In this document: piece after piece, positions 32,607 through 56,665 of the stretch
Layout: each line of letters starts with the position of its first letter
Numbering within the stretch: position 1 is the first letter of the stretch
Source: a virus
Virus record (IMG/VR): IMGVR_UViG_3300027749_000066
Span: 33,487-97,486 of that record
DNA length: 64,000 nt
Direction: 5' to 3' (one strand)
Notes under the pieces: generated by a model
Seen by the model: only the letters and a program-made list of their open reading frames with translations
The model's database searches: none
What the model was told of the DNA's origin: nothing
Made by a program: the position numbers and the translations under genes

Positions 32607-32622
32607 TGTTTCATGTGAAACA
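32607..32622. promoter_or_regulatory. parS site
   Basis: TGTTTCATGTGAAACA, 1 mismatch to consensus TGTTTCACGTGAAACA, intergenic. Confidence 0.75.
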
Positions 32623-34156: not shown

Positions 34157-34441
34157 AAATCGTTCCTTTTCTTGGGGATGGGACTTGCTGACAGATGTAC
34201 CCTATCATGTTTGACTGGTTGCGACAAATCCAAATCTCTGATGTCTCAAATAGATTTTGTGTCCAAAGAGTTTGTGAAAGCTTTTAGCATTAGATTTTCA
34301 CTAAAGTTTACCTTTATGTTTATTCCAACATTTGCGGGCGTTCTCATCGGCTTTTGCTTCTTGATGAGAACGCCCGCCGCTCGGGAACGCCAAGAAGCCC
34401 CACGGCATCGCCGTGGGGCTTCCTGAGGGGCTTGGGGGCCG

Positions 34442-34723
34442 TTAGCGCTTGCGCTTGGCCTTGCGAACCTCGATCTGCGGAATGCCGTTGGCATCGTAGG
34501 AGATCGACGGCTCATCGGCGCGTGCTGCTCGCCAATGCTTGCGGATCATGGCCGAGACTGCGGGCCGGTCCTCGCTTGCCACCTCACCAATGGTAGATGA
34601 CAGGCGCACGCCTTGCTTGTCCGTCACCTTTGCGAGAGTGGCGAGAAGGTCGGCGTTCCACTCGGTCTTCCGCCCTCGGGGGGACTTGACAAACTCCGAG
34701 GGGGAGATGAACTCATCAGACAT
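34442..34723 (-). CDS. 93-aa basic protein, paralog 1
   Basis: Clearly similar end to end to 35047 and 35701; PRGRK; RBS AGGAG. Confidence 0.85.
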   Translation of the reverse strand: MSDEFISPSEFVKSPRGRKTEWNADLLATLAKVTDKQGVRLSSTIGEVASEDRPAVSAMIRKHWRAARADEPSISYDANGIPQIEVRKAKRKR

Positions 34724-35046
34724 AACTACTCCTAAGTGAATCGGCTAGGGCCAGTCCCTAATCCGATGAGGTAAGTATGCCGGAAGGGTCTAGGATCTAC
34801 AACCAACGGAGCATAAACATCAGGTAAACATCAGGTGAACAGCTTCGCGGTTTGGATTTGGGATCATAGTGTTTATGAAAACGTTTTGCTATACATTTGC
34901 ATTAAAGTTTAGCTAAATGTTTATTCCAACATTTGCGGGCGTTCCTGTGGGGTTTTTGCTTCATCCACAGGAACGCCCGCCGCTCGGGAACGCCAAGAAG
35001 CCCCACGGCATCGCCGTGGGGCTTCCTGAGTGGCTCTAGCGGGCGT

Positions 35047-35328
35047 CTAACGCTTGCGCTTGGCTTTCTTGACTTCCACCTGCGGGATGCCCTCGTTTGA
35101 GAACGAGATCGACGGCTCGTCGTTGCGATCCCGACGCCAGTGCTTCCGGATCGACGCCGACACCGCGGCGCGGTCGTCCTTGTCCACGACGCCGATGCTA
35201 TCCCGAAGGACGACGCCCTGCTTGTCGGACACCTTCGCGAGAGTCGCGATCAGTGTCTCGTTCCATTCCGTCTTTCGGCCTCGGGCCGACTTGACGAAAC
35301 TTGCGGGGGAGACGAATTCGTCTGCCAT
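35047..35328 (-). CDS. 93-aa basic protein, paralog 2
   Basis: Paralog; RBS AAGGAG. Confidence 0.85.
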   Translation of the reverse strand: MADEFVSPASFVKSARGRKTEWNETLIATLAKVSDKQGVVLRDSIGVVDKDDRAAVSASIRKHWRRDRNDEPSISFSNEGIPQVEVKKAKRKR

Positions 35329-35700
35329 GATTGTTGCTCCTTGCGCTTGGGCTAGGGCCAGTCCCTAACCACAAGACGTACCTTAGTCTATGGGGTGAGT
35401 CAGAACCTAATCGAAAGGCTCTATGGCGATGGTCATATGTCACACCGTTATGGCTTGCGTCAGCCTGGCCGATGTGCTAGGCGACTTTCGGCCCTAGCAC
35501 AGCCGAAGCTCGAGTGCAAATCGGATTCGGGCGCATACTCAACTATGCATGATTATGCAATCACCTGCGACGGGCGTTCGTCGTCTGAGGAACGAAGACA
35601 CGACGAACGCCCGCAGGCTGACTGGCAGCCTGCGGGCGTCGGTTGTGGGGGGTGCTACTGCCCTCCCCCGAGGCGGGGCGGGGGAGGGCAGACCTTGGGG

Positions 35701-35982
35701 CTAGCGCTTGCCCTTGGTCTTTCTGACTTCCACCTGCGGGATGCCGTCGGCGCTGTAACTGATCGACGGTTCGTCGGTGCGATCACGGCGCCAGTGCTTC
35801 CGGATCATGGCGGAGGTTGCGGGACGCTCGTCCTGTGCGACGGCGCCAACGCTGTCTCGGAGGACGACACCCTTGGCGGGGGTCACCTTGGCGAGCGTGG
35901 CGATGAGTGTTTCGTTCCACTCAGTCTTGCGCCCTCGGGGTGAGCGAGCGAACTCACTCGGGGAGATGAACTCATCTGACAT
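35701..35982 (-). CDS. 93-aa basic protein, paralog 3
   Basis: Paralog; RBS GAAAGG. Confidence 0.85.
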   Translation of the reverse strand: MSDEFISPSEFARSPRGRKTEWNETLIATLAKVTPAKGVVLRDSVGAVAQDERPATSAMIRKHWRRDRTDEPSISYSADGIPQVEVRKTKGKR

Positions 35983-36285
35983 GGGGACTGCCTTTCACGT
36001 TTGCGGTTGAGCCACTCCCAACCGCTGAAGGTACCGTATCATAGGTGAGTTAGGGGATGCCACTCAGAATGGGGTTAGAACCAAGATTTCTCAGTGTGAC
36101 ATCTGACCATCAGAAATGACTTGCGCTGTACCCTCGAGCTATGGTAGGGCCATTTCGGTTCCTAGCACACATTCCACCCAAGACGCAAATCAGATCACCT
36201 GCGGCGGTCGTTCCTCTACGGTAGTGCGTGTAGAGGAACGACCGCAAAGCGCAAAGCCCCAGCCTTTCGGCTGGGGCTTTTCTTG

Positions 36286-36720
36286 TCAGGGCCGCTGTCC
36301 GGTTTCCTCTTCTATTCGCTTGAGAGTTTCGGGGAAGTAGGGTCCATCTCGCAAGATTTGATTCAGTTCATCATGATATCCTCGGAGGTAGAAGCTGAAG
36401 AGGTCATGATAGAGTTCTGAGATTTCATCGTAGTCGAAACCGTAGACGATGAGATCCAACATTTGCTCGTTGGTGATTTCTCTAAGGCTGAGATACTTGC
36501 GCCAGTTGCGAGGGTAGGCGACGATGGGAATGTTCTTGTCGTCAAAAGTGACTAGCACCGGCTGATTGTGTTCTAGTTCCCAATGCGCGGTGATCATGTC
36601 TCGCACAGCTGTTCGATTGGTCCATTCCACTGGTCCTACGGTACTGACTAGGCGTGCTGATTGGTGAAAGCTCACGCCGCGTAGTGTTTCTAGTAGTTGT
36701 TGGCTGTAGTTGGTTTCCAT
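36286..36720 (-). CDS. divergent 4th paralog with C-terminal extension, leaderless
   Basis: N-half aligns with 93-aa family (LL.TL..V....RL.ST.G.V....R.AV..MI..HW); TTGACA..TAGGGT 7 nt before ATG. Confidence 0.75.
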   Translation of the reverse strand: METNYSQQLLETLRGVSFHQSARLVSTVGPVEWTNRTAVRDMITAHWELEHNQPVLVTFDDKNIPIVAYPRNWRKYLSLREITNEQMLDLIVYGFDYDEISELYHDLFSFYLRGYHDELNQILRDGPYFPETLKRIEEETGQRP

Positions 36721-36944
36721 AGGGTGAACCCTAGACGATGGATCGGTGCCGTGTCAACTCCAAATGCACACTAAATCTCACTAGAGAAGATATCTATATT
36801 TGGCGGCCGTGCATCCGAGGAACGAGGATGGCACGCACGGCCGCCTGTGGATAACTCTGTGGATAACTGTTTCTCCGACAACGCAGAAGCGCCCTCGGGA
36901 AACTCCCGAGGGCGCTTTGCCGGTACCTCACCTCCCTTGTGAGA

Positions 36945-37448
36945 TCAGTCCATGTAGCCGTTGTTGACGAACCACAGGCGAGCGCCGTACACGCTTTCGG
37001 GGACCGTGGCGTCCTCTTGGCGGTAGAGGTCTTCCAGCGTGTCGAACTGTTCGGCCAGTTCGATTCCGGCATTCTCTCGCCCTTGGCGTTCGATCAGTTC
37101 CTGTTCGTTGGAATCGAAACCACCAGCGGAAGGGTTGGACCACAGTGAAAGAATGTCTAGCGGCATGGAAGTCGATCCGCCGTGGGGGTGATGAATGGTG
37201 AAGTCGATCAGTCGCGTTGTTATCGAAGTGTGGAATGTTGTTGTGATGGTTGTGAACCCATTCCCATACGACTGGACGAACTGAATGAACTCTGTGCATG
37301 ATCCGTTGTCGTGCATCGTGATCGTGCTCACGGGTGCGTCAACCCTGTAGCCCATGCGCATCATGCGCCAGCACAGGGTTCGGGGGATTGGGGAGAGCGA
37401 CGCAATCTGCGCCACGGAAAGATTCGTCTCCATCAGAATATCGGACAT
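36945..37448 (-). CDS. hypothetical cassette protein
   Basis: RBS GGAGG; followed by hairpin 36886-36919. Confidence 0.65.
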   Translation of the reverse strand: MSDILMETNLSVAQIASLSPIPRTLCWRMMRMGYRVDAPVSTITMHDNGSCTEFIQFVQSYGNGFTTITTTFHTSITTRLIDFTIHHPHGGSTSMPLDILSLWSNPSAGGFDSNEQELIERQGRENAGIELAEQFDTLEDLYRQEDATVPESVYGARLWFVNNGYMD

Positions 37449-37687
37449 GACAACCTCCAGTCGTACCGGCACCCGTTGTGCCGATGGCAAACGATACCAT
37501 AGTTCCAACAGTGCGTGTAGTGTTTTCCCACGTATTCCAGGTATTGTTTACCTAATGTTCATGTTCGGCGGGCGCACTCTTCCGCAGGAAAAGATAGCGG
37601 GGCGCCCGCGCCGCGAAAAAGTTATCCACAGGTTTGTCCACAGGCTGGGTGCTGCTGGCCCCCGCCCGAAGGCGGGGGCCGAGTGGA

Positions 37688-38110
37688 TCATTCGTAATAG
37701 CTGTTGTCATCATCGTGATCCGGCCCGCAGTTGCCACGGATGATGCGAACGCTGAAATAGCCTTCCGGCTCTTGGGTGAGCGTGGGGAACACGCGAGGGT
37801 TGCCATCTTCGAATCGTTCGATCCATTCGAACGCCTTGTCCAGACTCGGAACCTGACGAGAGGCGACACGCTTGCGCGTGGTGAACCACCAACCACCCTC
37901 CTCGGGTCCGCCGTACTCAGAGCAGACATCGTACACTGAGATCCACCACACGCCGTCACCGGCCGAGTCGCGGTCGATCTCGCCGGATGTCGCGCAGTAG
38001 GCGCCGTGATCAGTCATCATCTGCGCGTACTCCGGCCCGCGATCGGGAGTCCAGATTTCGGCAATCTGGCCGCAGATGTTGCAAGTGGCGGGGGAAGTGA
38101 CTTCGGACAT
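37688..38110 (-). CDS. hypothetical cassette protein
   Basis: YGGPEEGGWW motif; RBS GGAGG; stop in hairpin A. Confidence 0.75.
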   Translation of the reverse strand: MSEVTSPATCNICGQIAEIWTPDRGPEYAQMMTDHGAYCATSGEIDRDSAGDGVWWISVYDVCSEYGGPEEGGWWFTTRKRVASRQVPSLDKAFEWIERFEDGNPRVFPTLTQEPEGYFSVRIIRGNCGPDHDDDNSYYE

Positions 38111-38353
38111 GGGAACCTCCGGTTCGTGCGTGACACCATGCCACGCACAAGGAATGGTAGTCGATTCAAGTTGTCAGTGCAAGTGTTTCCCATAGTGTTT
38201 CGATATGCACCAGGAATACACTCAAGAATGAATATTTATGCAACAATATTTGGCGGCCGTGCATTCTGAGGAACGAAGAATGCACGCACGGCCGCCTGTG
38301 GATAAACCTGTGGAAAACTGCTGGCCCCCGCCCGAAGGCGGGGGCCGAGTGGA

Positions 38354-38593
38354 TCAGAGATCTCGCTCAAGCGCCCAGAGGACGCCTTCGAGCCACATTT
38401 CGGCTCGAATGAGATCGTCGAACTCCTCGTAGTCTGCGGACTCGTAGCGGACTCCATCGTGCTTGAAGATGCGCACGACCCATGAGTCTGATCGCCAATT
38501 CTGATCGTGGACGATGGTTCCGAAGAACTCTCCATCGTCGGTGGATGTGCCTTGGGTGGGGGTGGGTACCCACTGTGTGGTGTATTTCTTCAC
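38354..38593 (-). CDS. hypothetical cassette protein, leaderless
   Basis: Stop in hairpin A; TTGCGC..GAGACT 6 nt before GTG. Confidence 0.7.
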   Translation of the reverse strand: MKKYTTQWVPTPTQGTSTDDGEFFGTIVHDQNWRSDSWVVRIFKHDGVRYESADYEEFDDLIRAEMWLEGVLWALERDL

Positions 38594-38792
38594 GACGAAA
38601 GTCTCCCACAGTTGGGGATTCGGCGCAAGTCAATCGGGAAGATTTGCGTGCTACCACGCACATTCTATTTCTCTGGAGAAGATATCTATATTTGGCGGCC
38701 GTGCATCCGAGGAACGAGGATGGCACGCACGGCCGCCGTCCACAGCCTGTGGAAAACTGCTGGCCCCCGCCCGAAGGCGGGGGCCGAGTGGA

Positions 38793-39176
38793 TCAGGCTA
38801 GATCGAAGAACCTGATGACATCCGAGTATGTCGGTTCGTCGATCTTGGTGGTTCGGCCATCGGTCCCCTTGATGGCAGCGTTGAGGATTTCCACTCCGGA
38901 GAATCCATCTTGTTCGGTGGCGTAGATTCCGATGTGCGCTCGCTCTACGCCACGGACCATCCACAGTGATGCAACGGTGCGAACCTCATCACTGTAGCGG
39001 ATCGAAGCTTCGGCCTCGTTACCGAAGACTGGCTTGGTGATACCGTTCGGGCCGGTCCATCCGTTGCGAAGCATCAGAGTGAAAAATCCGATGAGGTAGC
39101 GGGCGGATACCGGCTGGCTGATGTTGGTGTTGCGGGCTGGAGTGTCTACCAGCTTTTTGGTGTGGGTGGTTCCCAT
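38793..39176 (-). CDS. hypothetical cassette protein, leaderless
   Basis: TTGACA..TAAACT 7 nt before ATG; stop in hairpin A. Confidence 0.7.
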   Translation of the reverse strand: MGTTHTKKLVDTPARNTNISQPVSARYLIGFFTLMLRNGWTGPNGITKPVFGNEAEASIRYSDEVRTVASLWMVRGVERAHIGIYATEQDGFSGVEILNAAIKGTDGRTTKIDEPTYSDVIRFFDLA

Positions 39177-39390
39177 GAGGAGCAGTTTAGGGATGGCGAC
39201 AGTTGTTGTCAAGTGTTTTGCGTGCTACCACGCACATTCAAAGTTGTCTAGAAATGTTCTCTAGTTCGGCGGGCGCACTGATCCGTCGAAAAGCAAACGG
39301 AGCGCCCGCGCCGGGCAAAGGTTATCCACAGGCTGTGGATAACTCTGTGGAAAACTGCTGGCCCCCGCCCGAAGGCGGGGGCCGAGTGGG

Positions 39391-39729
39391 TCACTCTACT
39401 GTGATTCCGAAACCATCTTCGCGACGACTGTGGGTCTTGACTTCGATGAGGAGATCATCTTCGAAGTATGGAACGGGTGAGACGCATTCGTCTTCATCGC
39501 ACCATGTTCGCGTCTCATGATCGTAACAGTCATGCTCCATGCCAACAGTTGGGCGGGTGATAAAAATTGTTGCGATGAGGATTCCCCCAAGGAAGATCTC
39601 AACTCCTGCAGAGTCGTTCCACGTTACTGCGTTGAATGCTGTCACTTTCGGCATGATGCCGTTCAGCATGAGTTCGGATGGGGTTGCCGGAGTTTCCGGC
39701 TGGGATGAGGTACCGCTTGTGTTGTTCAC
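39391..39729 (-). CDS. hypothetical cassette protein, leaderless
   Basis: TACCAT 6 nt before GTG; stop in hairpin A. Confidence 0.7.
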   Translation of the reverse strand: MNNTSGTSSQPETPATPSELMLNGIMPKVTAFNAVTWNDSAGVEIFLGGILIATIFITRPTVGMEHDCYDHETRTWCDEDECVSPVPYFEDDLLIEVKTHSRREDGFGITVE

Positions 39730-40049
39730 GTTGTCATGGTACAGGAGCCAAGTGAACGCACAATGGTTTTTGGGTAAACAGAAGATGAATCTTTTTGTTC
39801 ACTTTCTGTTCATCGTTTCTTTATGTAGATGAACATTGGGTGAACTTTTTTGTTCATGTTCTGTTAGCTCAATGTTCACCATATATTCATCTTTTGTTCA
39901 TCTTCCGTTCATGTTCGGCGGGCGCATTCTCCCATCAGAAAAGACAATGGGGCGCCCGCCGCCCGGTTTTCCACAGGTTTGTCCACAGGCTGTGGATTGT
40001 TGTGGTGCCTGTGGACAACTCCGCTGGGGAGTTGTCCACAGGCTGGGGA

Positions 40050-40475
40050 TCAGACTGCCGAAATCCAGTGGCGGATGTCGATGATTGTTTCCGTGAGAGT
40101 GTCAGTCTCATCAAGGAACGATACAGTTCCGTCTGTGTAGACCCTTGCTTGTGTGCAACGGTCATCGACGCTGGAATCGTCGGTTCGGAAGACTGACATT
40201 ATCGCAACGCCGTTGTCCTCTATGACGGTCACAGAATGAATGAATCCGCCAACATTGGTGACATGTGTTGCAATGTGACGAACCGACTCACTGATGCCCA
40301 TACGAAGCAGAGCATCATAGGTGCGAACGGCGTTCATGCTAGATGCGCCGCTACAGTCAGACATATGGCCAAGAAACAGAACCCATGCGGGGACGGAGCC
40401 AAGGCGTGCGACTGCTGCCGTGGCGGGGACTGCCAGAACCTCTGGCGGGGTGAGGTACTTCTGTGTGTTGTTCAC
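40050..40475 (-). CDS. hypothetical cassette protein, leaderless (family with 40879, 43524)
   Basis: MNN...VPAWVLFLG; TAGGGT 6 nt before GTG. Confidence 0.7.
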   Translation of the reverse strand: MNNTQKYLTPPEVLAVPATAAVARLGSVPAWVLFLGHMSDCSGASSMNAVRTYDALLRMGISESVRHIATHVTNVGGFIHSVTVIEDNGVAIMSVFRTDDSSVDDRCTQARVYTDGTVSFLDETDTLTETIIDIRHWISAV

Positions 40476-40878
40476 AGAATCACCCTAGTGCCGATTGCGT
40501 CCGGATTGCAAGCCAGAAGGCCGATTTTCACCAGGTTTTTGTGGTCATATGTCACACTGTTTGGACTTGACAATGGTTGGTGAGATGAGCTAGACTCTCA
40601 AATCCCACAAGATTGGTGGGGTTTGCATTCCCCACAAAGTTGGTGGGAATGAGCTAGCACATCAAAGTGAACTTTGAATGAATGGAAGGTAAACAGAAGA
40701 TGAATTCTTTTGTTCATCATATGTTCATCTTTTGTTCATCTTCCGTTCATGTTCGGCGGGCGCATTCTCCCATTGGAAAAGAATATGGGGCGCCCGTCGT
40801 CGGGCAATGTTTTCCACAGGCTTGTCCACAGGCTGTTGGGAACTGCTGGCCCCCACCCGAAGGTGGGGGCCGAGTGGA

Positions 40879-41289
40879 TCACTCTCCGGTGATGTACTTC
40901 CGGATGATTCGGAGAGCCGAGAGGAGCGTATCGTCGTGCTCGTTCCAGTAGTCCAGCGTTCTACTCATCCAGATCCCATCGGGATGGATGGTCATCTCGG
41001 CATGGTTGTATCCGTGGCCGATGTCGATTGTCACGTTGCCACCATGCACCCATGTGGACTGAATGCGGCCACCGAGTGAATCGACAGTGTGGGCGATCTT
41101 GATGATCGAACACCCAAAGTGATTCGCGCTTGTGGGTGCGATTGTGTTCAGCGCAACGAGAGCCGTCTGGAGAGTTGTTCCAGAGAAGTTATCCACGGTG
41201 ATTTCACCGAGGAGCATGGCCCAAGTTGGGACGGTGGATGGGACTGACAGAGCCTCTGTCGGGGTGAGGTGCTGCTGTGCGTTGTTCAC
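40879..41289 (-). CDS. hypothetical cassette protein, leaderless
   Basis: MNN...VPTWAMLLG; TACCCT 6 nt before GTG; stop in hairpin A. Confidence 0.72.
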   Translation of the reverse strand: MNNAQQHLTPTEALSVPSTVPTWAMLLGEITVDNFSGTTLQTALVALNTIAPTSANHFGCSIIKIAHTVDSLGGRIQSTWVHGGNVTIDIGHGYNHAEMTIHPDGIWMSRTLDYWNEHDDTLLSALRIIRKYITGE

Positions 41290-41593
41290 GTTGTCAGGGT
41301 ACCAGCTCCAAGTGAACGCAAGGTGAACGGACGGTGGAATCGGGGTGAATGTTGAAGATTCACCTGCTGTTCACCTTCCCTTTATGTGAATGAATTTTGA
41401 ATGAACAGAAGATGAACAAAAGGTGAAATGTTTTATTCACCATGTGTTAACCTAAAGTTCACCGAATGTTCATGTTGGGCGGGTGCATTCTTCCGCAGAA
41501 AAAGAAAGCGGAGCACCCGCCGCCGACTTTTCCACAGGTTTGTCCACAGGCTGGGTGCTGCTGGCCCCCGCCCGAAGGCGGGGGCCGAGTGGA

Positions 41594-42214
41594 TCAGGCT
41601 CCGATGCTCATCATCTTCCGGAAGATTGCGAGGGTGATCTCGGCGTCAACCTCGGCACGATGGCTGAACGGAACGTGAATCCCGAACCGCTCGGCAGTGG
41701 CCTTCAGGTTGTGACGACCCTCGGTGAACATGAGTCGGGACATTCCGAGAGTGCAGAACGTGCCAACCTTGGGAGCCTTGACTCCGGCTCGGTGCAATTC
41801 CACCACGATGAACGAATGATCGAACGATGCGTTGTGCGCCACGAATGTTGCGTTCCGCATCATCTCCCGAACCTTGGGGGCGATGTCTGCGAACGTCGGA
41901 GCGTGCATCACCATCGCATCAGTGATGCCGTGAATCTCGGTGGCACCAGTGTCGCGGTTCGGGTTCACCAGTGACACGAACCGACGAACCTCGCGACCCT
42001 TGGCGTCGATGCGGATCATTGCGATTTCGATGATCCGTTCCGAATGGGCATCCAAGCCAGTGGTCTCAACATCGACAACCACGCGATCGCCCGAGCGCAG
42101 AAGATCGCGAACGATGTTGTAGGTGCAATGGGCGAGAGTGAGAAACGCTCCCACGATGCATGATGCGATGACGAACCCGACAGGCTCGGAGACTGCGGAG
42201 TAGACAGTGTTCAT
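41594..42214 (-). CDS. DEDDh 3'-5' exonuclease (DnaQ-like) with N-terminal hydrophobic helix
   Basis: DVETTG, HGIT, VAHNASFD, HRAEVDA; RBS AAGGAG; stop in hairpin A. Confidence 0.9.
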   Translation of the reverse strand: MNTVYSAVSEPVGFVIASCIVGAFLTLAHCTYNIVRDLLRSGDRVVVDVETTGLDAHSERIIEIAMIRIDAKGREVRRFVSLVNPNRDTGATEIHGITDAMVMHAPTFADIAPKVREMMRNATFVAHNASFDHSFIVVELHRAGVKAPKVGTFCTLGMSRLMFTEGRHNLKATAERFGIHVPFSHRAEVDAEITLAIFRKMMSIGA

Positions 42215-42384
42215 GATTTCTCCTTGCTAGGTGCCGGTGGACTCTCCCCCGACAAAGACAAGTATTGCAGGCCCAAGTGAACATAGGATTGTGGGAAGGT
42301 GAACAGAAGGTGAATTCATTTGTTCATCAAAAATTCATCTGTTTTTTATGAAGATGAATTCTTGGTGAATTTTGAGCTAAATTT

Positions 42385-42759
42385 TTGTCCACAGGGTTAT
42401 CCACAGGCGGCGGCCGTGCATCCGAGGAACGAGGATGGCACGCACGGCCGCCATCCACAGGTTTTTCCACAGGCTGTGGATAACTTTCGGTTGTCCACAG
42501 GTTTTTCCACAGGCGGGGAGAAGTTGTCCACAGGTGAGGGGAGTTCTCCACAGGGTTGTCCACAGGTTGCCTGTGGATGAGGGTGTGGAAAACTGTTGTC
42601 CACATGGTTGTCCACAGAGGCTGAGTGGTTGTCCACAGTTTCCACAGGTTTGTCCACAGGTTTGTCCACAGGCGCAGATCCTGGAGGCAGTGGTTGTCCA
42701 CAGGGCTGGGGAAAACCCTGTGGACAACGAGCCTGGGCCTGTGGAGTGAGTTTTCCACA
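42385..42759. repeat. oriC-like cluster of >20 DnaA boxes
   Basis: TTGTCCACA/TTATCCACA/TTTTCCACA and reverse, many at 12-bp spacing, next to AT-rich 42300-42385. Confidence 0.88.
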
Positions 42760-42774
42760 GGCCCAGCCGTCGGG

Positions 42775-43020
42775 TCAGAGCCAGTCGCCGGGATTCAGGA
42801 ATGCATCGGAACACTCTCGGCAGATGAGATCTCCCGAATCCATGTTCTGATATGTCGGATGCCATCCAGTGATCTCCCCATCCGTGACGATGGCGCCGAT
42901 GGGTTCACTGGCACAGTAGTGGCAGTTGTCGGCCAATGGCATTCCGATGCGCTCGGATGTTTCGATGAGAAACTCATCGGCGATGTGGCAGATGTTCGCG
43001 GTGTTCGGGTTGATGGTCAT
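42775..43020 (-). CDS. zinc-finger-like small protein
   Basis: CHYC..CREC; RBS GAAAGAG. Confidence 0.65.
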   Translation of the reverse strand: MTINPNTANICHIADEFLIETSERIGMPLADNCHYCASEPIGAIVTDGEITGWHPTYQNMDSGDLICRECSDAFLNPGDWL

Positions 43021-43077
43021 TGTGTTCTCTTTCGTGTGTTCTGGTTGGTGTTGGGTTGGGATGGAAGGACAGCGTGG

Positions 43078-43526
43078 GTCCGGCACCGGAGTGCCGGACC
43101 CTGCCGGTCAGATCGACACTCGGCCAGTGTCTCGGGCGAGGTAGACAACCGGAATCAGATCATGGTGTGGGGACACCATCGTGTAGTAGTTTCCGTTGGT
43201 GTGGCCGTGGATGCCCCGACCGTTCTGATCGATGAATCCCGGAGCGCACACTGCCGATGAGAACGTGTAGCCGAGAGTGTTGAGGATGGTGATGGTGGTA
43301 TCAATCCGATCGGAGTGATGCATCATCGGGACGCTGTAATCCGCCTCGGTGAGTAGAGCCTCTACGACTGAGGCGATGGTCTCGGCCGAGAGTCGGATGG
43401 TGGTGGTGGTGGTGTTCGGGTTGGTGTTCATTGTGTATTCCTATCTGTTCTAGTTGGTTGGTTTGTTGGTGTGGAAGGACTACCGGAGCGGGTCCGGCAC
43501 CGGAGTGCCGGACCCTGCCGGTATCA
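43078..43526. repeat. hairpin-C pair GGTCCGGCAC-CGGA-GTGCCGGACC
   Basis: 43077-43110 and 43491-43526, each abutting an ORF stop; partial third copy at 44011. Confidence 0.75.
43108..43431 (-). CDS. hypothetical protein
   Basis: RBS AGGA; poly-Thr N-terminus. Confidence 0.65.
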   Translation of the reverse strand: MNTNPNTTTTTIRLSAETIASVVEALLTEADYSVPMMHHSDRIDTTITILNTLGYTFSSAVCAPGFIDQNGRGIHGHTNGNYYTMVSPHHDLIPVVYLARDTGRVSI

Positions 43527-43979
43527 CCAGCCGGAGCCGGTGGGGAAGTTGGAGCCGGTGAACCAGCGGAGGAGCGCAGCCGCTTCCGGCATCGTGACGG
43601 TACCGTGTTGGGTGATTTCGCAGCCACCATCGAACGTGGTGGTTTGAACCTTCACGCGGCCCGCCTCGTAGATGGTGGCAGTGAGGCTAGCGCCGGTAGC
43701 GTTGTGAGCGGTTACTTCGACGTAGTTGTTGAACACATCAGTGCAATACACCTCGGCATCGTTCTGACCGCAGTAGGCAATCCATCGGATGACTCCGTGG
43801 AGTCGGCTAGCCGGTGATGCCATGAGTGCGAGGTAGCCGCGGGCGTGGGCGTTGGCGTTGGGCGTGTAGCCGTGGCGCAGGTCGGCCATGCTTCCGGCGA
43901 ACATGACCCACGACTCTACGAGCGCCGGAATATCCGCCGGTCGGGGAGTGGTGGTGGTGGTGGTGGTTGCGTTGGTCAT
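43524..43979 (-). CDS. hypothetical protein (family with 40050/40879)
   Basis: VESWVMFAGSM similar to VPAWVLFLGHM; RBS GAAAGG. Confidence 0.65.
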   Translation of the reverse strand: MTNATTTTTTTPRPADIPALVESWVMFAGSMADLRHGYTPNANAHARGYLALMASPASRLHGVIRWIAYCGQNDAEVYCTDVFNNYVEVTAHNATGASLTATIYEAGRVKVQTTTFDGGCEITQHGTVTMPEAAALLRWFTGSNFPTGSGW

Positions 43980-44378
43980 GGCTGACCCTTTCGGTGAGTG
44001 GGTGCCGGTCGGTCCGGCACCTCGGTACTGCGTAGTCAGACTACACCCGCGGGGGGGGGGCCGCGCCAGTTTTGGGGCCGATTTCTGATCGGATTTGGTG
44101 GTCATATGTCACACCGATTTCGGCCACATCGTCGGCCGAACTGTGCTAGGGGAGCTCGAGGTCAATCTCCACCAGATCGGTGGGGATTGTACCCCACCAG
44201 TTTAGTGGGGAAGCCAGGATCTGGGATAGAGGGCAGCCTTGTCTGAGCGTGTGTTAAATTTTTGTCTTTTTTTGGTTTGACAAATAAAATTGCCCTTCAA
44301 GCTGGGGGTGTGCTTGAGGGGCGGGGGGTTGCTTTTTTTGTTTTTTTGTGTGTTGGGGCTAGATGTCCCAGTTGGGGG

Positions 44379-44489
44379 CTAGATGTCCCAATTTGGGGCT
44401 TCGTCGGGTTCGTCGTCCCATTGGATTTCGTCGGGATAGTCGGGGATGGGGATGGTTTCGGGTTCGATTTCGATGATTGTGGGGGTCAT
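44379..44489 (-). CDS. 36-aa acidic peptide
   Basis: MTPTIIEIEPETIPIPDYPDEIQWDDEPDEAPNWDI, TAATG-coupled. Confidence 0.45.
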   Translation of the reverse strand: MTPTIIEIEPETIPIPDYPDEIQWDDEPDEAPNWDI

Positions 44490-44695
44490 TATTCTTCTTC
44501 TTCGTAGTCGTATTCGTATTCGGCGTCTTTTTTGGCTTGTTGGAGGGCGATTGTGAGCATTCCGATGGTTTCGTAGGCTGCGAGTTCTTCGTCTGTGTCA
44601 ATTTCGATGCCGAGGTGTCCGTCTTCGTCTAGTACTTTGCTGATGATGATGGTGCCGAGTGTGATTCCGGTGTTTTGTTCGGTGTTTTCGTCCAT
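44489..44695 (-). CDS. small acidic protein, leaderless
   Basis: TGATACACT 6 nt before ATG. Confidence 0.65.
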   Translation of the reverse strand: MDENTEQNTGITLGTIIISKVLDEDGHLGIEIDTDEELAAYETIGMLTIALQQAKKDAEYEYDYEEEE

Positions 44696-44763
44696 GTGTT
44701 TAGTGTATCATGGTGGTGTTTTTGTGGCGATGGGGGTTTGGCCGGTTTTTTGTTGCGGTTGTG

Positions 44764-45378
44764 TTACTTTTTGTTGGCTTGGTGGATTGCTTTGGCGAAT
44801 CCGTTGGGTGTGACCGATCTTTTTTCGGCTCTGTCGGCGCTTGGTGGTAGGTTGTTGAGTTTGTTTTTGTTGGTTGGTTGTACATATTTTGTTTCTGGCA
44901 TGATGAAGCCGTTTCCGGTCCATAGGCAGGTGCGTTTGTAGTAGGCTTCTTCTTCTGGGTTGTCTAGGTAGCCTGCGTAGTCTGTTGGTTGGAAGATGTA
45001 GTCGGGTTTTCTCCAGTATGTTGAGATGGTTGATACTGGGTTTTCGATCATGTATGGTGCGTCGGACCATTCTGCGATTTTTACGCAGGCTTCTACGACT
45101 TGGAGGGCTTCGACTAGACCTGTGAGGCCTTTGTCGTGGAAGTATCGGGCGCCGGAGACTGCGACGTTTGTGCAGGGTGGAAATCCGAATACTATTTCGT
45201 ATTCTGTTCTTGGTGGAAGCCATTTGGTGATGTCAGCACCGATTGTGGTGAGATTTCCGGTTTTTTTGGTTCCTTTGGGGTGTTGTGTGTCTACGATCAT
45301 GCATTCGTAGCCTGCTTCCAGCCACGGTTGGACGATGTTCCCTGTTTTGTCACAAAGTGATAGTACTAGTTTTGTCAT
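44764..45378 (-). CDS. C5 cytosine DNA methyltransferase (short phage type)
   Basis: VLSLCD.TG, FPPCT, IENPV, YYKRTCLW, RSVTPNGFA. Confidence 0.85.
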   Translation of the reverse strand: MTKLVLSLCDKTGNIVQPWLEAGYECMIVDTQHPKGTKKTGNLTTIGADITKWLPPRTEYEIVFGFPPCTNVAVSGARYFHDKGLTGLVEALQVVEACVKIAEWSDAPYMIENPVSTISTYWRKPDYIFQPTDYAGYLDNPEEEAYYKRTCLWTGNGFIMPETKYVQPTNKNKLNNLPPSADRAEKRSVTPNGFAKAIHQANKK

Positions 45379-45407
45379 TTGTCAAGTTTATCATGTTTTG
45401 TATGGCA

Positions 45408-47258: not shown

Positions 47259-47312
47259 CCTTTAAAGCCTTTAAAGCCTTTAAAGCCTTTAAAGCCTTTA
47301 AAGCCTTTAAAA
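47259..47312. repeat. 9-bp tandem repeat (CCTTTAAAG)x6
   Basis: Five perfect units plus one variant in a divergent AT-rich intergenic region. Confidence 0.92.
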
Positions 47313-47539
47313 CTTTTTATTAAAAAATACACTGAATAAAGTAATTACTAATAATCTATTATTAAATTCTTTATCTTTCAGCTTTTAAAAACATTGGTAA
47401 CAAGGCTTGTAGCCTTAAAGCGCACATGGGGTGCGTCTTTTTGTTGTTTCAAAGTTCTTGGTGGAACCGGTTGCGATCCGTGATATGATGCTTGGATTCC
47501 CCTTGGAAGGCTTGGGGCGAACAGGCATAGGAGCCACCG

Positions 47540-48447: not shown

Positions 48448-48520
48448 GGACGTTTAACTCAGTTGGTAGAGTATCTCTTTTACAAAGAGAAGGTCAGGGG
48501 TTCAATTCCCTTAACGTCCA
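48448..48520 (+). tRNA. tRNA-Val(TAC)
   Basis: Cloverleaf GGACGTT/AACGTCC, loop TTTACAA, GGTTCAATTCC. Confidence 0.9.
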
Positions 48521-48522
48521 CT

Positions 48523-48720
48523 ATGAATAATATAGAAAAAGAATATACATTTTTACTTACTGAGATGGAAGCAGCTTATCTTAATGCTGCAGTAGTAGAT
48601 TTTTTTCATAAGATGAAAAATGCTGCTGAGGAAAAAACAGTTGTACTATTTAGAGATGATAGATATCGTATTGCCAAAGATCTTTGGATGAAAATAGAAA
48701 AACAAATCCCTTTGCTGTAA
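48523..48720 (+). CDS. hypothetical protein
   Basis: ORF after tRNA. Confidence 0.55.
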   Translation: MNNIEKEYTFLLTEMEAAYLNAAVVDFFHKMKNAAEEKTVVLFRDDRYRIAKDLWMKIEKQIPLL

Positions 48721-48734
48721 TGATATAATAGAGT

Positions 48735-49082
48735 ATGATATATCGTGAATACATTACGTCTGATGAGTGGAAGAAGCGTAGAGAAAACTACTTTGAGACT
48801 CATCTGCGACGATGTAGAGCTTGTGGCTCAGCGAAAAGGATTCATCTTCATCATAAAACTTACAGACGGCTAGGACAAGAGCGGGATGCAGATTTGGTTC
48901 CGCTTTGTCATTTGTGCCACTCAGCTTTACATCGTAGGCAGAGGCAGAGTGGCCAGAATCTCTGGATTGCCACTGAGGCATTCATTCGCAATAAAGAAAA
49001 AATGCGTAGTAAAAAAAAGAAAAAAAAGAAGCAAGTTGTGAAAAGAAAATCCCGACTTCACAAAAAAGAAACAAGATCATGA
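48735..49082 (+). CDS. HNH endonuclease
   Basis: CRACG..LHHKTY..LCHLCH. Confidence 0.85.
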   Translation: MIYREYITSDEWKKRRENYFETHLRRCRACGSAKRIHLHHKTYRRLGQERDADLVPLCHLCHSALHRRQRQSGQNLWIATEAFIRNKEKMRSKKKKKKKQVVKRKSRLHKKETRS

Positions 49083-49105
49083 TATAATCATGGCCAGAGG
49101 TAAAA

Positions 49106-49909
49106 ATGATCTATGCAAAAATAATAGCTGATAGTGTAAATGTGACTGGTGATAGACTTACTACAATGGAAGTTCAGTTTCACCGATTTATACTTCCTGA
49201 GTTTAATACTCACCGAGTTTTTTCTCGTAACTCTGCATCATCAAGAGCTATCCCAATTTCTAGGCAAATAGAAAAAATTTCAAAAAATCCTGCCTTCCCA
49301 GTTTTCTGGGGAGTCAATAAGCCCGGTATGCAAGCAGAAGAAGAGTTAGCATTCTGCGATTCAGTCAAAGCAAGCAAGACTTGGCTTAAGGCCTCCAAGA
49401 GTGCAGTGAAGCACGCAAAGAAACTTGAGAAGCTTGGAGTTCATAAGCAGACTACTAATAGACTTCTTGAGCCTTTTATGTGGCATAAGGTTATTGTCAG
49501 TTCAACTGAGTGGGATAGTTTTTTTGAGCAAAGATGCAGTCCACTTGCTCAACCTGAAATTCGTGAAGTCGCAGATTTAATGAAGACTGCCTATGAATCA
49601 AGTACTCCTGTTCTTTTGATTAAAGGAGAGTATCATTTGCCATATTTAACTTTCAAAGATTTAAATTTTAGTAGACAAGATAGAATCAAAATGTGTGTAG
49701 CTAGATGTGCAAGAGTATCTTATGATAATCATGATGGCTCTTTTAATCAACTCAAAGATCTACAATTATTTGACAGATTGGCAAACGCAGAACCTCCTCA
49801 CTGGAGCCCTATGGAGCATATTGCTACACCTTCTACAAAAAAATTAAATAATTCTGGAAATTTTATAGGATTTTCTCAAGTTAGGCATAACTTAGATCTG
49901 GTATTATAA
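49106..49909 (+). CDS. thyX: FAD-dependent thymidylate synthase
   Basis: EFNTHRVFSRNSASSRAIP, AQPEI, ARCARVSY, HWSPMEH. Confidence 0.9.
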   Translation: MIYAKIIADSVNVTGDRLTTMEVQFHRFILPEFNTHRVFSRNSASSRAIPISRQIEKISKNPAFPVFWGVNKPGMQAEEELAFCDSVKASKTWLKASKSAVKHAKKLEKLGVHKQTTNRLLEPFMWHKVIVSSTEWDSFFEQRCSPLAQPEIREVADLMKTAYESSTPVLLIKGEYHLPYLTFKDLNFSRQDRIKMCVARCARVSYDNHDGSFNQLKDLQLFDRLANAEPPHWSPMEHIATPSTKKLNNSGNFIGFSQVRHNLDLVL

Positions 49910-49913
49910 TACT

Positions 49914-50078
49914 ATGAGATTTAAGAGTATTTTATGTGAAAATAAAAATCATTATGAATGTCTAGAATATACTTGTGAATGTCCATGTCACCATCCAAAT
50001 TATTGCGATTGTTTTGCTTGTAGAGTAAAGACAATTGGATTTGGCCAAGTTCCGGGTGGATATAAATCAACGAACTAG
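49914..50078 (+). CDS. Cys-rich small protein (54 aa)
   Basis: CECPCH..CDCFAC open frame. Confidence 0.5.
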   Translation: MRFKSILCENKNHYECLEYTCECPCHHPNYCDCFACRVKTIGFGQVPGGYKSTN

Positions 50079-50137
50079 CTTAGTTGTAAAAACTTTTTAT
50101 CCATGATAAAATTACTGTATATACTTAGGAGATAATT

Positions 50138-51208
50138 ATGGATCTAGATGCAATTCCATTCATTCAAGCTAGAAATTTTACTTGGGGCCGTAAGGTTCAA
50201 CCTTCCTTGATTGTAATTCACGACATGGAGGCTGGAGAGTACTCTACGACAGCAGAATCATGTGCAAATTACTTCTCTGGTGGAAATGCGCCACAGGCCT
50301 CTGCTCATTATTGTTGCGATAACGATAGTATTGTTTGCTCTGTAAAGCCAGATGATACCGCTTGGCATACTGGTGAAAATAGCACAAATAATTGTGGCAT
50401 TGGCATTGAGCAGGCTGGATATGCTAATCAGGGCATTGGCTTTGGAACTGGATGGGCCGATCAGTATTCACAGGATATGATTATTAATCAGGTTGCCCCT
50501 CTGTGCGCTGCTCTTTGTGAGCGCTATGGTATTCCGGTACACTTCCTCACTGCCGATGATCTTCGTGCGGGTGATCGTGTTGGCATTACTTCTCATCGCG
50601 AGATTACTTATGCTTTCGTTCAGGGCGGTCATACTGATCCCGGTCCTGATTATCCTTGGGATCAGCTTCTTTCTGAGATTGCAAAAAATCTTGGGGGCCA
50701 ACCTCCTGCTCCACAGCCCCCTGAGACGCCTACTCCTAGTTCTGATGTATTCGGTCCCGGATCAACTGGTAATCAAGTTAAGTCCATTCAGGCTCTTGTA
50801 GGAGTTACTCAGGATGGTATTTATGGTTCTCAGACTCAAGCAGCAGTGGCTGTTTGGCAGAGAAATATTAATGTACCTGCTGATGGTATTTGGGGTCCGA
50901 GAACTCAGGAAGCTACTAATCAGTTTTTTGTTTGGATTTCTTCTCAGAATCATCATCCGGCCTCTGGCGAAGGTGATGCATTTCTTGCCGCTGTTGCAAG
51001 CGCAACTTCGCAGGTACTACAGAGTGGGTCAAGTGGCGGTGCTGTAAAAATTCTTCAAGGATCTTTGAATATTAGGGGATATGCTCTTGTTCAGGATGGT
51101 GTCTTTGGTCCTGCTACATCTAACGCTGTCCGCAGATTTCAATCTGACAACGGACTTGTCGTTGATGGTGTTGTTGGTCCCCAGACATGGACATATCTTC
51201 TCTCTTAA
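50138..51208 (+). CDS. endolysin: Amidase_2 + peptidoglycan-binding domains
   Basis: IVIHDME, ASAHY, AWH, GIE, HTDPG; DGIYG/DGVFGPAT repeats. Confidence 0.92.
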   Translation: MDLDAIPFIQARNFTWGRKVQPSLIVIHDMEAGEYSTTAESCANYFSGGNAPQASAHYCCDNDSIVCSVKPDDTAWHTGENSTNNCGIGIEQAGYANQGIGFGTGWADQYSQDMIINQVAPLCAALCERYGIPVHFLTADDLRAGDRVGITSHREITYAFVQGGHTDPGPDYPWDQLLSEIAKNLGGQPPAPQPPETPTPSSDVFGPGSTGNQVKSIQALVGVTQDGIYGSQTQAAVAVWQRNINVPADGIWGPRTQEATNQFFVWISSQNHHPASGEGDAFLAAVASATSQVLQSGSSGGAVKILQGSLNIRGYALVQDGVFGPATSNAVRRFQSDNGLVVDGVVGPQTWTYLLS

Positions 51209-51214
51209 AATAAG

Positions 51215-51895
51215 ATGGCTAGAGTTAGCGTTCTCCTCACTGTCTATAATAAACCTCAATGGTTAAATCAGTGCATTGACTCTGTAATTGACCAGACATA
51301 TGATAATTGGGAACTTATAATTCTTGATGACAATTCTCCTGATCCAATGGTTCAGGAGATTTTGTCTTCTTACAAAGATGAGAGAATTAAAATATATACA
51401 TCTAATGTTTCTGAGCAGGATAGATACAAAACGGCTAGATACGCTACTTTAATAAATCTGGGTGTCTATGAGATAGCAACTGGCGACTATATAACCTATC
51501 TTACTGATGATGACTTCTATTATCCAGATCGACTTGAGTCGATGGTTAAAAGATTGGAAGACGAAAGTATCAACATAGTTTATGGAAGTCAAAGATCAAT
51601 TCAACCTGATGGAACTACTATTGAAGTAAGAGACACTCAGGGCATATTAGATATTGCGTATAATATAGTTGATCATAATTCAGTTATGCACAGAACACAA
51701 TTGTTCTACGATGTTGGTGGGTGGCCGGATAGTCCAGAATATTGGGCGGGAGCCGATGCGTACTTCTGGAATAGAATAACTGACGCCGGACACAAGTTCT
51801 ATCCAGTAGAAGGTGGACCTTATGAAGCTAAGAGATATCATGGTGACAGTGTTCAGTATCTAGTTCATAATGGGAGGTTCTTTCCAAGTGAATGA
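51215..51895 (+). CDS. glycosyltransferase family 2
   Basis: VSVLLTVYN, LDDNS, YLTDDD. Confidence 0.88.
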   Translation: MARVSVLLTVYNKPQWLNQCIDSVIDQTYDNWELIILDDNSPDPMVQEILSSYKDERIKIYTSNVSEQDRYKTARYATLINLGVYEIATGDYITYLTDDDFYYPDRLESMVKRLEDESINIVYGSQRSIQPDGTTIEVRDTQGILDIAYNIVDHNSVMHRTQLFYDVGGWPDSPEYWAGADAYFWNRITDAGHKFYPVEGGPYEAKRYHGDSVQYLVHNGRFFPSE

Positions 51896-52562
51896 CAAAG
51901 TGTTGTTGGGTATTATTGATAATAAAAGACCAGATTGCTTAGATGCTACAATTCAATCTTTAGAGAATAATTTATTTTATGATTTTTTTAAAAAAGTAAT
52001 TATCAATGATTCTGGAGATAGTAAATATGCTAAGTATCTTGAAGAAAAATACTCAGATAGATATGAAATTTACTCTCATCCTGAAAATATGGGACTCTCT
52101 GGTTCAATAAGAACTTTATGGAGCATAGCAAATATTTATAATGTAGATTATGTTTGGCATCAAGAAGGCGATTTTATTTTTAATCAAAAAATTGATCTTA
52201 ATATACTCAAATATAAATTAAATAACAAAAAAACTCTTGCCCAAGTTGCTTTGAAAAGACAGGCTGTTAATGATCAAGAAATTTCTGTTGGTGGATTTAT
52301 GTATCAAGATCCAACTTCATATGAGCCATATATACATGATAATGTTAAGTGGTTAGAGCATAGAAAACTCTTTACTTTAAATCCATGTCTATACCCTAAA
52401 TGGGTAGTTGACTTAGGATGGCAAGTAGGCTGGGGAGAGAAAGAGTTTTCAGAACTTCTGTTTTCAGATCCATATGTCAAGTGTGCATATTTAGGACATA
52501 TGGAAGATCCTCCTTTGGTAGATCATATAGGACACTACAGAGGGGATGGCTGGCGTGTATGA
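51888..52562 (+). CDS. GT-A fold glycosyltransferase
   Basis: INDSG, HQEGDF, FTLNP, HIG. Confidence 0.78.
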   Translation: MNDKVLLGIIDNKRPDCLDATIQSLENNLFYDFFKKVIINDSGDSKYAKYLEEKYSDRYEIYSHPENMGLSGSIRTLWSIANIYNVDYVWHQEGDFIFNQKIDLNILKYKLNNKKTLAQVALKRQAVNDQEISVGGFMYQDPTSYEPYIHDNVKWLEHRKLFTLNPCLYPKWVVDLGWQVGWGEKEFSELLFSDPYVKCAYLGHMEDPPLVDHIGHYRGDGWRV

Positions 52563-53185
52563 ACGCATACAATGAAGATTTTTATAATCAAATACATGAT
52601 GGAGCCTTGTCATCTGCAAGAGCTATCGTACCCGAAGTAATAAGCATATTTAAACCAAAGTCTGTAGTTGACTTTGGCTGTGGAACGGGGGCTTGGCTAT
52701 CAGTATTTAAAGAGAATGGCATAGATGAAATAGCCGGAGTCGATGGATCTCCAGAGGGATATTCTCTTATACCCGAAGAAAATTTTATACTAAAAGATCT
52801 TTCTTCAGAGTTTTCTTTAGACAAAAAGTATGATTTAGCTGTATCACTTGAAGTTGCTGAGCATATTCCTCATAAATTTGCTGATCAATTTGTGACTAAT
52901 ATTTGCAATAGCTCAGACAATATACTCTGGTCAGCAGCCGTTCCGGGCCAAAAAGGCGTTGAACATATAAATGAACAGTGGCCAAGTTATTGGGTACCGA
53001 AGTTTCATCAAAAAGGCTATATATGTTCACCTATTTTTAGATTTAATTTTTGGAATAATGAAAATATTGAAAACTGGTATAGACAAAATATATTGATCTT
53101 TACAAAAAATCCAGTTCTATTTAAAAATATTAAAGTTGATCATCAAATCTTAGATGTTATACATTATAATAACTGGAGTGTCTAG
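52559..53185 (+). CDS. class I SAM methyltransferase
   Basis: VDFGCGTG, SLEVAEH, HINEQ. Confidence 0.9.
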   Translation: MNAYNEDFYNQIHDGALSSARAIVPEVISIFKPKSVVDFGCGTGAWLSVFKENGIDEIAGVDGSPEGYSLIPEENFILKDLSSEFSLDKKYDLAVSLEVAEHIPHKFADQFVTNICNSSDNILWSAAVPGQKGVEHINEQWPSYWVPKFHQKGYICSPIFRFNFWNNENIENWYRQNILIFTKNPVLFKNIKVDHQILDVIHYNNWSV

Positions 53186-54544: not shown

Positions 54545-54580
54545 AAAATATAGTATAATGATTTTGAACATTGGACGCTT

Positions 54581-55276: not shown

Positions 55277-55286
55277 CGGAGATCTT

Positions 55287-56551: not shown

Positions 56552-56552
56552 G

Positions 56553-56581
56553 TTGCGAACCTGCTGAAGCCGTGGTACGAT
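56553..56581 (+). promoter_or_regulatory. promoter for tRNA-Ile
   Basis: TTGCGA-17-TACGAT with TG extension. Confidence 0.6.
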
Positions 56582-56592
56582 GCTGGGAGCAA

Positions 56593-56665
56593 CCGGCAGT
56601 AACTCAGTGGTAAGAGGACGATTCTTATACAGTCGTAGTCGGTGGTTCGATCCCACCCTGCCGGA
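56593..56665 (+). tRNA. tRNA-Ile(TAT)
   Basis: CCGGCAG/CTGCCGG, anticodon loop CTTATAC, GGTTCGATCCC. Confidence 0.82.

Follow-up and report, generated by a model that had tools for sequence, protein, structure and literature searches.

Clusters of DnaA boxes that restrain the initiation of replication are known from Escherichia coli (datA) and Bacillus subtilis (the DnaA-box clusters, DBCs) (PMC3245932), and the chromosomal titration of DnaA has been described (PMC12371093). Both datA and the DBCs lie outside origins and consist of high-affinity boxes; DnaA binds to them, and initiation is restrained in a dose-dependent manner (PMC3245932; PMC12371093). In the first-step-transfer/iss region of phage T5, pairs of boxes 3 bp apart are found with inverted repeats in untranslated DNA among early host-takeover genes (bioRxiv 10.1101/866236); the function of these eight boxes among the pre-early genes has only been hypothesised (10.1101/866236). 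The present analysis concerns a cluster of 21 DnaA-box-like sites in a 64-kb stretch of viral DNA (the window), which comprises bases 33487-97486 of the 97,486-bp linear IMG/VR virus record IMGVR_UViG_3300027749_000066. The cluster is very probably a binding array for host DnaA, and it lies in an island of probably early genes. It is tentatively read here as a sink for host DnaA with possible local effects on transcription. datA and the DBCs differ from it in being chromosomal, in holding about 5-10 boxes and in serving the cell's own cycle control, and datA further differs in needing IHF and in promoting ATP hydrolysis. The phage, which is of lytic type, carries 21 boxes in the cluster and about 18 dispersed ones, and these are presumably used against the host.

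A DnaA-box-like 9-mer is present at all 21 coordinates listed by an earlier note on this DNA, and two further features that the note had described, the frequent 12-bp spacing and the adjoining AT-rich stretch, were recovered as well: successive boxes of the cluster are 12 bp apart in 10 of 20 cases, and positions 42300-42384 have a GC content of 27%, against 57% in the cluster. Strict matches to TTNTCCACA make up 18 of the 21 sites. Exact copies of TTGTCCACA account for 11 (42385, 42491, 42524, 42556, 42596, 42608, 42629, 42650, 42662, 42694 and 42719r, where r marks the reverse strand), and three sites are weaker (CCATCCACA at 42451, TCATCCACA at 42572r and GTTTCCACA at 42638). Read as TTNTCCACA, 16 boxes of the cluster lie on the plus strand and 5 on the minus strand. 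The enrichment is far above chance: the window holds 38 matches to TTNTCCACA, compared with 3.63 +/- 1.88 in shuffled sequences, and none of 100 shuffles reached 38. Within the 97-kb genome, 36 of the 40 copies fall inside a single 11-kb island. Tandem Repeats Finder (TRF) detected a 12-bp period across 42595-42672, and a motif search seeded on CCACA alone returned G-TT[G/A/T]TCCACA-GG in the island, a bias that was not seen outside it. The stretch at 42300-42384 is the most AT-rich 85-bp interval of the island, and 8% of intervals in the whole genome are equally AT-rich. A coding role for the cluster was rejected, as the open reading frames (ORFs) that overlap it have no third-position GC bias, in contrast to the real genes of the island. 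A search of the island against Rfam gave no family match and nothing near threshold. The cluster and its immediate surroundings, with positions counted from the first base of the window, are:

42385 to 42759, non-coding: box cluster, 21 boxes (18 strict TTNTCCACA) in 375 bp, with spacings mostly of 12, 21 or 32 bp
42406 to 42452: GC-rich hairpin inside the cluster (hairpin B), an element also present in the spacers at 36.8, 38.2 and 38.7 kb
42278 to 42384, minus strand: AT-rich stretch (27% GC) in which about nine TGAAY/RTTCA units repeat at 11-bp phasing, immediately preceding the promoter and leader of the exonuclease gene
41594 to 42214, minus strand: gene for a DnaQ-like DEDDh 3'-5' exonuclease (Pfam RNase_T, E 1.2e-33), the first gene downstream of the cluster
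42775 to 43086, minus strand: small Cys-rich orphan ORF upstream of the cluster, with no terminator hairpin between it and the boxes, where the other cassettes have one

The quality and number of the boxes bear on the comparison with datA and the DBCs. Boxes with at most one mismatch number 18 per 500 bp in the cluster, compared with 3-6 in 16 dnaA-linked bacterial loci, and several consensus-grade boxes of the high-affinity type are thus assembled without the geometry of an origin. Exact TTGTCCACA occurs 18 times in the phage and 10-29 times per genome in five whole Actinomycetota genomes (2.8-4.6 Mb), an arbitrary set that does not include the host; exact tandem pairs of TTGTCCACA number 1-2 per genome in the same five. 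A single incoming phage genome would approximately double the number of perfect sites in the cell, and once the phage DNA replicated, its sites would exceed those of the cell many times over. In the proposed mechanism, the roughly 40 consensus boxes per genome would soak up host DnaA on infection, in both its ATP and ADP forms, and capture would become far greater once the phage DNA multiplies, to a degree predicted to be large enough to matter. DnaA would be withdrawn from the host oriC and from DnaA-regulated promoters, and new rounds of host chromosome replication would stop. Host parts that are absent from the phage (clamp, clamp loader and the supply of deoxynucleotides) would be freed for the phage DnaB/DnaG/DnaE/DnaQ machinery, and DnaA held on the spacers may strengthen termination or adjust the activity of the cassette promoters.

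The gene content of the phage is consistent with such a dependence on host parts. The record is 94% complete by CheckV and derives from freshwater metagenomes; no end repeats are found for it in IMG/VR. The genome has about 36% GC, with nearly all genes on the plus strand, and its GC skew keeps its sign across the cluster. Its replication and recombination genes encode DnaB, DnaG, SSB, a DnaE-type polymerase and UvsX/RecA-like, Cas4-like and RuvC-like proteins; ThyX, a class II ribonucleotide reductase (RNR), an amidase lysin, a portal protein and five tRNAs are also encoded. The statement that the phage encodes its own replisome therefore needs qualification: DnaB, DnaG, SSB, DnaE and the DnaQ-like exonuclease are present, but a beta clamp, a clamp loader and DnaA were not detected. 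A domain search of the phage found neither DnaA domain III nor domain IV. The replication genes include no recognisable phage initiator or helicase loader, a search for Rep or initiator families in the island and in the replication module gave none, and the island proteins contain no detectable helix-turn-helix (HTH) or DnaA-like domain.

Three features point to an actinobacterial host, and the host is taken as such because of them. The nearest cultured DnaE relatives, at 39% identity, are those of Streptomyces phages of the Stanwilliamsviridae; an Rpf-type transglycosylase is encoded (PF06737, E 1.4e-34); and several genes of the island begin with GTG 6-7 nt after a -10-like TANNNT hexamer. 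This last arrangement is the pattern of leaderless actinobacterial transcripts, and its occurrence here suggests such transcripts. A scan for sigma-70 promoters is uninformative for an actinobacterial host.

Host DnaA is likely to be the protein that binds the boxes, because the motif is the DnaA consensus with its flanks, because it varies at degenerate positions, because the phage has no DnaA domain of its own and because the host is actinobacterial. The match includes the flanking G's found at R1 and R4 of E. coli oriC, which was read directly. Variation occurs at position 3 in this phage and at position 5 (TTATGCACA) in another phage array, and positions 3 and 5 are the degenerate ones of the DnaA consensus TT(A/T)TNCACA (10.1101/866236). 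Arrays of the same motif are found in unrelated viral contigs with unrelated neighbouring genes; convergence on one motif in such contigs would not be expected of a phage-specific regulator.

The cluster is part of a larger system of repeated spacers. The island that holds it contains the following elements:

34400 to 45400, minus strand: GC-rich island, 50-62% GC (57%) against a phage background of 36% GC, with about 15 small genes and 36 of the 40 boxes
36846 to 41548: eight consecutive gene spacers with one to six strict boxes each, mostly in pairs 12 bp apart, at 36846/36858, 37622/37634, 38297/38309, 38748, 39322/39334/39346, 39967-40040, 40810/40822 and 41528/41540
39786-39907, 40668-40745, 41313-41468 and 42278-42366: phased TGAAY/RTTCA arrays

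The minus strand of the island genes was read from their third-position GC content (GC3), which is 0.69 in the island and 0.28 in the remainder of the phage; low-GC minus-strand genes flank the island on both sides. The codons GTA, ATA, AAA, TTA and AGA are almost unused in the island and common elsewhere in the genome, and they are exactly the codons read by the five phage tRNAs, which are encoded at 48448-58742. This codon usage fits translation by the tRNA pool of a GC-rich host, before or without help from the phage. The split suggests that the host is GC-rich and that early genes translated by the host are set apart from later, tRNA-assisted genes, and the island is probably an early or host-takeover region. 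By Pfam and PHROGs its genes are all orphans, except the DnaQ-like exonuclease and a DNA methyltransferase.

Between 36.7 and 42.8 kb the spacers share one layout. A terminator-like hairpin (hairpin A) directly follows the stop codon and is followed by the boxes, the GC-rich hairpin B and a promoter region of lower GC content. Spacings of 12 bp between boxes occur 15 times in the island. Upstream of four island genes lie the phased TGAAY/RTTCA arrays, with an exact 11-bp period and 6-12 units, which look like sites for a response regulator of the OmpR/PhoB type or for a phage regulator. The 21-box cluster is itself one of these spacers: hairpin B (42406-52) and the phased array (42278-42384) are kept, hairpin A is missing, and the box module is amplified about tenfold. 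The cluster arose by amplification of a two-box module carried by the gene spacers of the island. Boxes are carried on three different spacer backgrounds, in both orientations, over 6 kb, which indicates that the motif itself is kept and not one fixed architecture.

Several other observations concern the island genes. The nearest named relatives of the exonuclease are actinobacterial, with 41-45% identity, and unnamed matches reach 47%; two short contigs (P0002 and P0003) encode exonucleases 81% and 78% identical to it. Three 93-aa paralogues (34442-34723, 35047-35328 and 35701-35982) are 70-72% identical, each with a basic KRKR tail and its own cassette without DnaA boxes. No family match was found for them, a distant fourth copy is encoded at 36286-36720, and no relatives of the 93-aa protein were found in IMG/VR. 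The gene at 43108-43431 is absent in run X3, where a contig joins 43075 to 43490 with 33 bases shared at the joint; this is a natural gain or loss of one cassette. Contigs of runs X1 and X4 diverge at the box triplet 39315-39346 into other sequences that also carry TTATCCACA boxes, which may be variant cassettes or other box-bearing DNA of the same samples. An RNA run covers only 43134-43427 and the repeat at 47260-47298.

Elsewhere in this DNA, just past the last plus-strand gene, where the minus-strand block begins on its left side, a parS-like TGTTTCATGTGAAACA lies at 32607-32622. It differs from the chromosomal parS consensus at a single position, and the number of matches expected by chance was zero. 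A LexA-box-like site at 32744 was rejected as not above chance. Between 22039 and 27657, no ORF of at least 150 aa (table 11) was found over 5.6 kb.

Comparison with relatives shows that the number of boxes is labile. The one relative that covers the island, on which the conservation test rests, is a near-complete, syntenic genome of 96.7 kb (G007) whose DnaE is 84% identical. Its island is likewise GC-rich and has the same genes on either side, but its own genes and its repeated spacer differ from those described here. The large cluster is not kept at the same place in G007, which has 9 boxes only, the largest group being 4; most form inverted pairs able to fold into hairpins, right after stop codons. 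The proteins of the G007 island, as noted at L117 9646-9930, include a WhiB-like, Cys-rich one and three paralogous members of a family of 120-150 aa, whose genes are set apart by another conserved spacer with promoters of the TTGACA type. Further afield, a megablast search of 41.5-43.5 kb against 50,697 phage records gave no match. Relatives of the exonuclease (at most 41% identity over most of the protein in IMG/VR and at most 42% in metagenome contigs) have no box pair or cluster, and relatives of the methyltransferase (34-56%) have no arrays and no GC islands. The Streptomyces BE/BK phages, the nearest cultured DnaE relatives, carry only 6-9 scattered boxes.

Dense arrays are found in viral DNA unrelated to this phage. 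At least eight strict boxes per 500 bp were present in 14 of 80 viral loci with TTGTCCACA pairs (the largest with 22), compared with 1 of 80 bacterial loci; among loci with TTATCCACA pairs, 3 of 80 viral loci had arrays. Viral contigs with arrays of 8-22 boxes include L054 (G001, at 5040-5900), L084 (G002), L093 (G003), and L100 and L026 (G004), and further unrelated array-bearing contigs are L096, L029 and L035 as well as L056, L030 and L064. The arrays of G001-G004 adjoin terminase genes or occupy a divergent gap, and DnaA is encoded by none of these four; L054 has tandem TTATGCACA units in addition. The proposal that the arrays are terminase (cosB/pac) sites was rejected, since the same host-type motif occurs in unrelated phages with unrelated terminases. 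In the literature that was searched, no phage arrays of this kind were found described, apart from T5. A separate case is L180, a 32%-GC contig in a Vulcanimicrobiota metagenome-assembled genome (MAG) bin, with 22 strict boxes in 500 bp (458-960) and 34 in 7 kb, adjoining sigma-54 and PP2C genes; either an unusual box cluster of a chromosome or an error of binning may account for it.

The reading of the cluster as a DnaA sink draws on several of these results. A labile box number, 9 in G007, suits an accessory and dose-dependent element. It fits a dose-dependent trap, as do the spread of the boxes over 6 kb, their occurrence in either orientation and their consensus quality throughout. The missing clamp and clamp loader were counted in its favour, as was the host-adapted, early look of the island (GC3, codons, a terminator and promoter for each gene, orphan proteins). 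Other considerations weigh against it. In B. subtilis, a multicopy plasmid with a DBC bound DnaA but did not restore initiation control (PMC3245932), so that titration by extra boxes is not guaranteed to work. In a slow-growing host, a block to initiation may take effect too late to be of use to a lytic phage, and the regular placement of box pairs, one per spacer, suggests a function at each cassette that a pure sink would not need. A box cluster beside an AT-rich stretch is also origin-like in appearance, and the five genomes used for the box counts are arbitrary Actinomycetota and not the host.

The earlier note had left the choice between a host-DnaA-driven origin and a datA-like sink. The origin half fares poorly on geometry, on the AT-rich stretch and on the relative; the sink half agrees better with the consensus-grade boxes and the dose, and a DnaA trap is more likely than an oriC-like origin. 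At such an origin, DnaA would oligomerise, open the nearby DNA and load phage or host DnaB for the first round, with later rounds proceeding by recombination, for which the UvsX/RecA-like, Cas4-like and RuvC-like genes would be suited. This is doubtful, more so for a canonical oriC-like origin than for an unconventional DnaA-dependent one, even though a cluster of DnaA boxes of the kind seen at chromosomal origins (21 sites in 375 bp, 18 of them strict) does adjoin the island's most AT-rich 85 bp, no phage initiator or helicase loader is recognised, and a replication-type exonuclease is the first gene downstream. The number and 12-bp spacing of the boxes also recall the Streptomyces-type oriC, with which the cluster has in common the TTGTCCACA consensus, the packing of many boxes into a few hundred bp and pairs 12 bp apart from centre to centre. 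The actinobacterial character of TTGTCCACA pairs with 3-bp gaps, part of the original proposal, was borne out: the bacterial scan returned mostly Actinomycetota, and 18 of 80 loci had dnaA signature motifs within 8 kb. Actinobacterial oriC regions differ, however, in that degenerate boxes dominate and dnaA/dnaN adjoin, whereas nearly all boxes of the phage cluster are consensus, no geometry of box to unwinding element is seen, and the cluster lies between an orphan ORF and a DnaQ-like gene. A mixture of few strong and many weak sites was likewise not found: the phage has 18 sites at up to one mismatch and 21 at two, while the 16 dnaA-linked loci, whose sites are mainly weak, have 3-6 and 5-19 per 500 bp, respectively, two of them reaching 16-19 boxes at two mismatches. 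In E. coli oriC, read directly, the DNA unwinding element (DUE) lies 13 bp from the TGTGG end of R1. The boxes that flank the AT-rich stretch here read AT-rich-TTGTCCACA, the reverse of the E. coli order DUE-13 bp-TGTGGATAA. The order is also the reverse of that in the basal unwinding system (BUS), which consists of a box, a spacer of up to 16 bp and then DnaA-trios (PMC8287927). AT-rich DNA abuts the TT end of TTGTCCACA at 42385, and a TTATCCACA box followed within 16 bp by trios and AT-rich DNA was not found. No (CTA)n/(TAG)n trios lie past any box in the proper direction, the strand assignment of the trios being drawn in part from general background, and the plus-strand boxes are GC-rich on their 3' side. 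The AT-rich stretch is the phased TGAAY array common to three spacers with 2-6 boxes, and it overlies a promoter. The closest relative has no large cluster, and the GC skew does not change sign at this position. Mobile elements such as P1 oriR, ori-lambda with its pR region (PMC8203912) and iteron plasmids also recruit host DnaA to boxes beside AT-rich DNA and repeats. In the phage no initiator gene is recognisable, and the 11-bp units recur upstream of four different genes, so that the iteron-type arrangement of an initiator gene beside iterons and boxes is not seen. The origins of P1, lambda and iteron plasmids use 1-5 boxes as helpers of an element-encoded initiator that binds the iterons. 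An alternative candidate for an origin is the conserved and far more AT-rich divergent gap at 47.26-47.40 kb, between the minus-strand block and the next plus-strand genes, with six perfect 9-bp repeats. The six perfect tandem CCTTTAAAG repeats, within 47259-47400, are followed by 85 bp of 15% GC, and there are no DnaA boxes. All three relatives examined have a long, extremely AT-rich gap at this place, which in G007 and G008 has no CCTTTAAAG repeat; it is a candidate origin or divergent promoter region.

If the boxes act locally, they could be DnaA-dependent transcription elements (a roadblock or insulator, an activator or a repressor), each placed after a terminator hairpin and ahead of the promoter that follows it. 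The expression of early genes would in that case track the replication state of the host, with the 21-box array as a strong form of the element that guards the exonuclease gene. DnaA is well established as a transcription factor, and it activates transcription at ori-lambda (PMC8203912). In the phage, a box pair holds the same place in eight consecutive spacers, always between hairpins A and B; the large cluster could take the place of the hairpin-A terminator that its spacer alone lacks; and the G007 boxes form inverted pairs right after stop codons. Such a role is unlikely as the full explanation of the boxes, given that their orientation differs among spacer families and DnaA-mediated termination is orientation-dependent, that the three 93-aa paralogue cassettes share the layout and have no boxes, and that 21 sites are far above the number at any known DnaA-regulated promoter. 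An improbable alternative is that a phage-encoded protein, for example an orphan of the island, binds a motif that only resembles the DnaA box. About 15 island proteins have no known function, regulator sites in each spacer are common among phages, and the conserved 12-mer G-TTNTCCACA-GG is slightly longer than the 9-mer box; set against this are the exact match to the DnaA consensus with the R1/R4 flanks, the mixtures of TTATCCACA, TTGTCCACA and TTATGCACA in unrelated phages, which follow TT(A/T)TNCACA, and the failure to find an HTH or DnaA-like domain in the island. There is, similarly, only a slight chance that the boxes are an injection stop or membrane anchor as proposed for T5, with membrane-associated DnaA holding the early DNA that is injected first. 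The 3-bp spacing of the pairs, their flanking by hairpins A and B and the early-gene context all recall T5, and the arrays of four other viral contigs adjoin terminase genes or early/late boundaries. The T5 model is itself only a proposal, however, and T5-like phages differ in having 8 boxes, half of them non-consensus, in a terminal repeat, compared with about 40 here, nearly all consensus. The two lineages are unrelated, the cluster is 25 kb from the terminase-like gene, and only contigs bear on the position of the genome ends. The concern of the earlier note that the segment might be misassembled host oriC proved unfounded, and an artefact joining host oriC DNA to the phage contig is scarcely credible. 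The island's GC content is 20 points above that of the remaining genome and short-read contigs are fragmented by repeats, but Logan contigs from two samples bridge both junctions of the cluster (run X1 over 41571-42438; run X3, which is independent, over 42423-43075), and the relative G007 has a GC-rich island in synteny between the same flanking genes; the reading was rejected for these reasons. In addition, neighbouring spacers contain the hairpin B and the TGAAY array seen at the cluster, low-GC minus-strand genes lie on either side of the island, and neither dnaA nor dnaN was found. The cluster is native phage DNA.

The arrangement of the island has parallels in the PeSL-type cassettes of T4-type phages and the host-takeover module of SPO1, in which small orphan early genes have their own promoter and terminator and gene content is hypervariable. 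The island cassettes are like these in their many small orphan genes, each with its own promoter and terminator, and in gene content that varies between relatives. To our knowledge, no such early cassettes carry sites for the host initiator in each spacer, and all known phage attacks on the initiation of host replication are made by proteins. A DNA decoy for DnaA, if true, would be a new class of takeover device. Should the cluster prove to be an origin, no earlier case of an origin made of DnaA boxes only would be known from a large actinophage of lytic type, and the host initiator would be shown to be borrowed even by a phage that encodes a helicase, a primase and a polymerase. It is conceivable, and is put forward cautiously, that arrays of consensus boxes deprive the host of its initiator as a "DnaA sponge", a takeover device at the level of DNA that has arisen repeatedly in unrelated phages. 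In the present phage such a device would be built into the spacers of early genes and amplified tenfold at one site. The arrays of 8-22 boxes in unrelated viral contigs, together with the boxes in early-gene spacers, point to an unrecognised and widespread use of host DnaA by phages.

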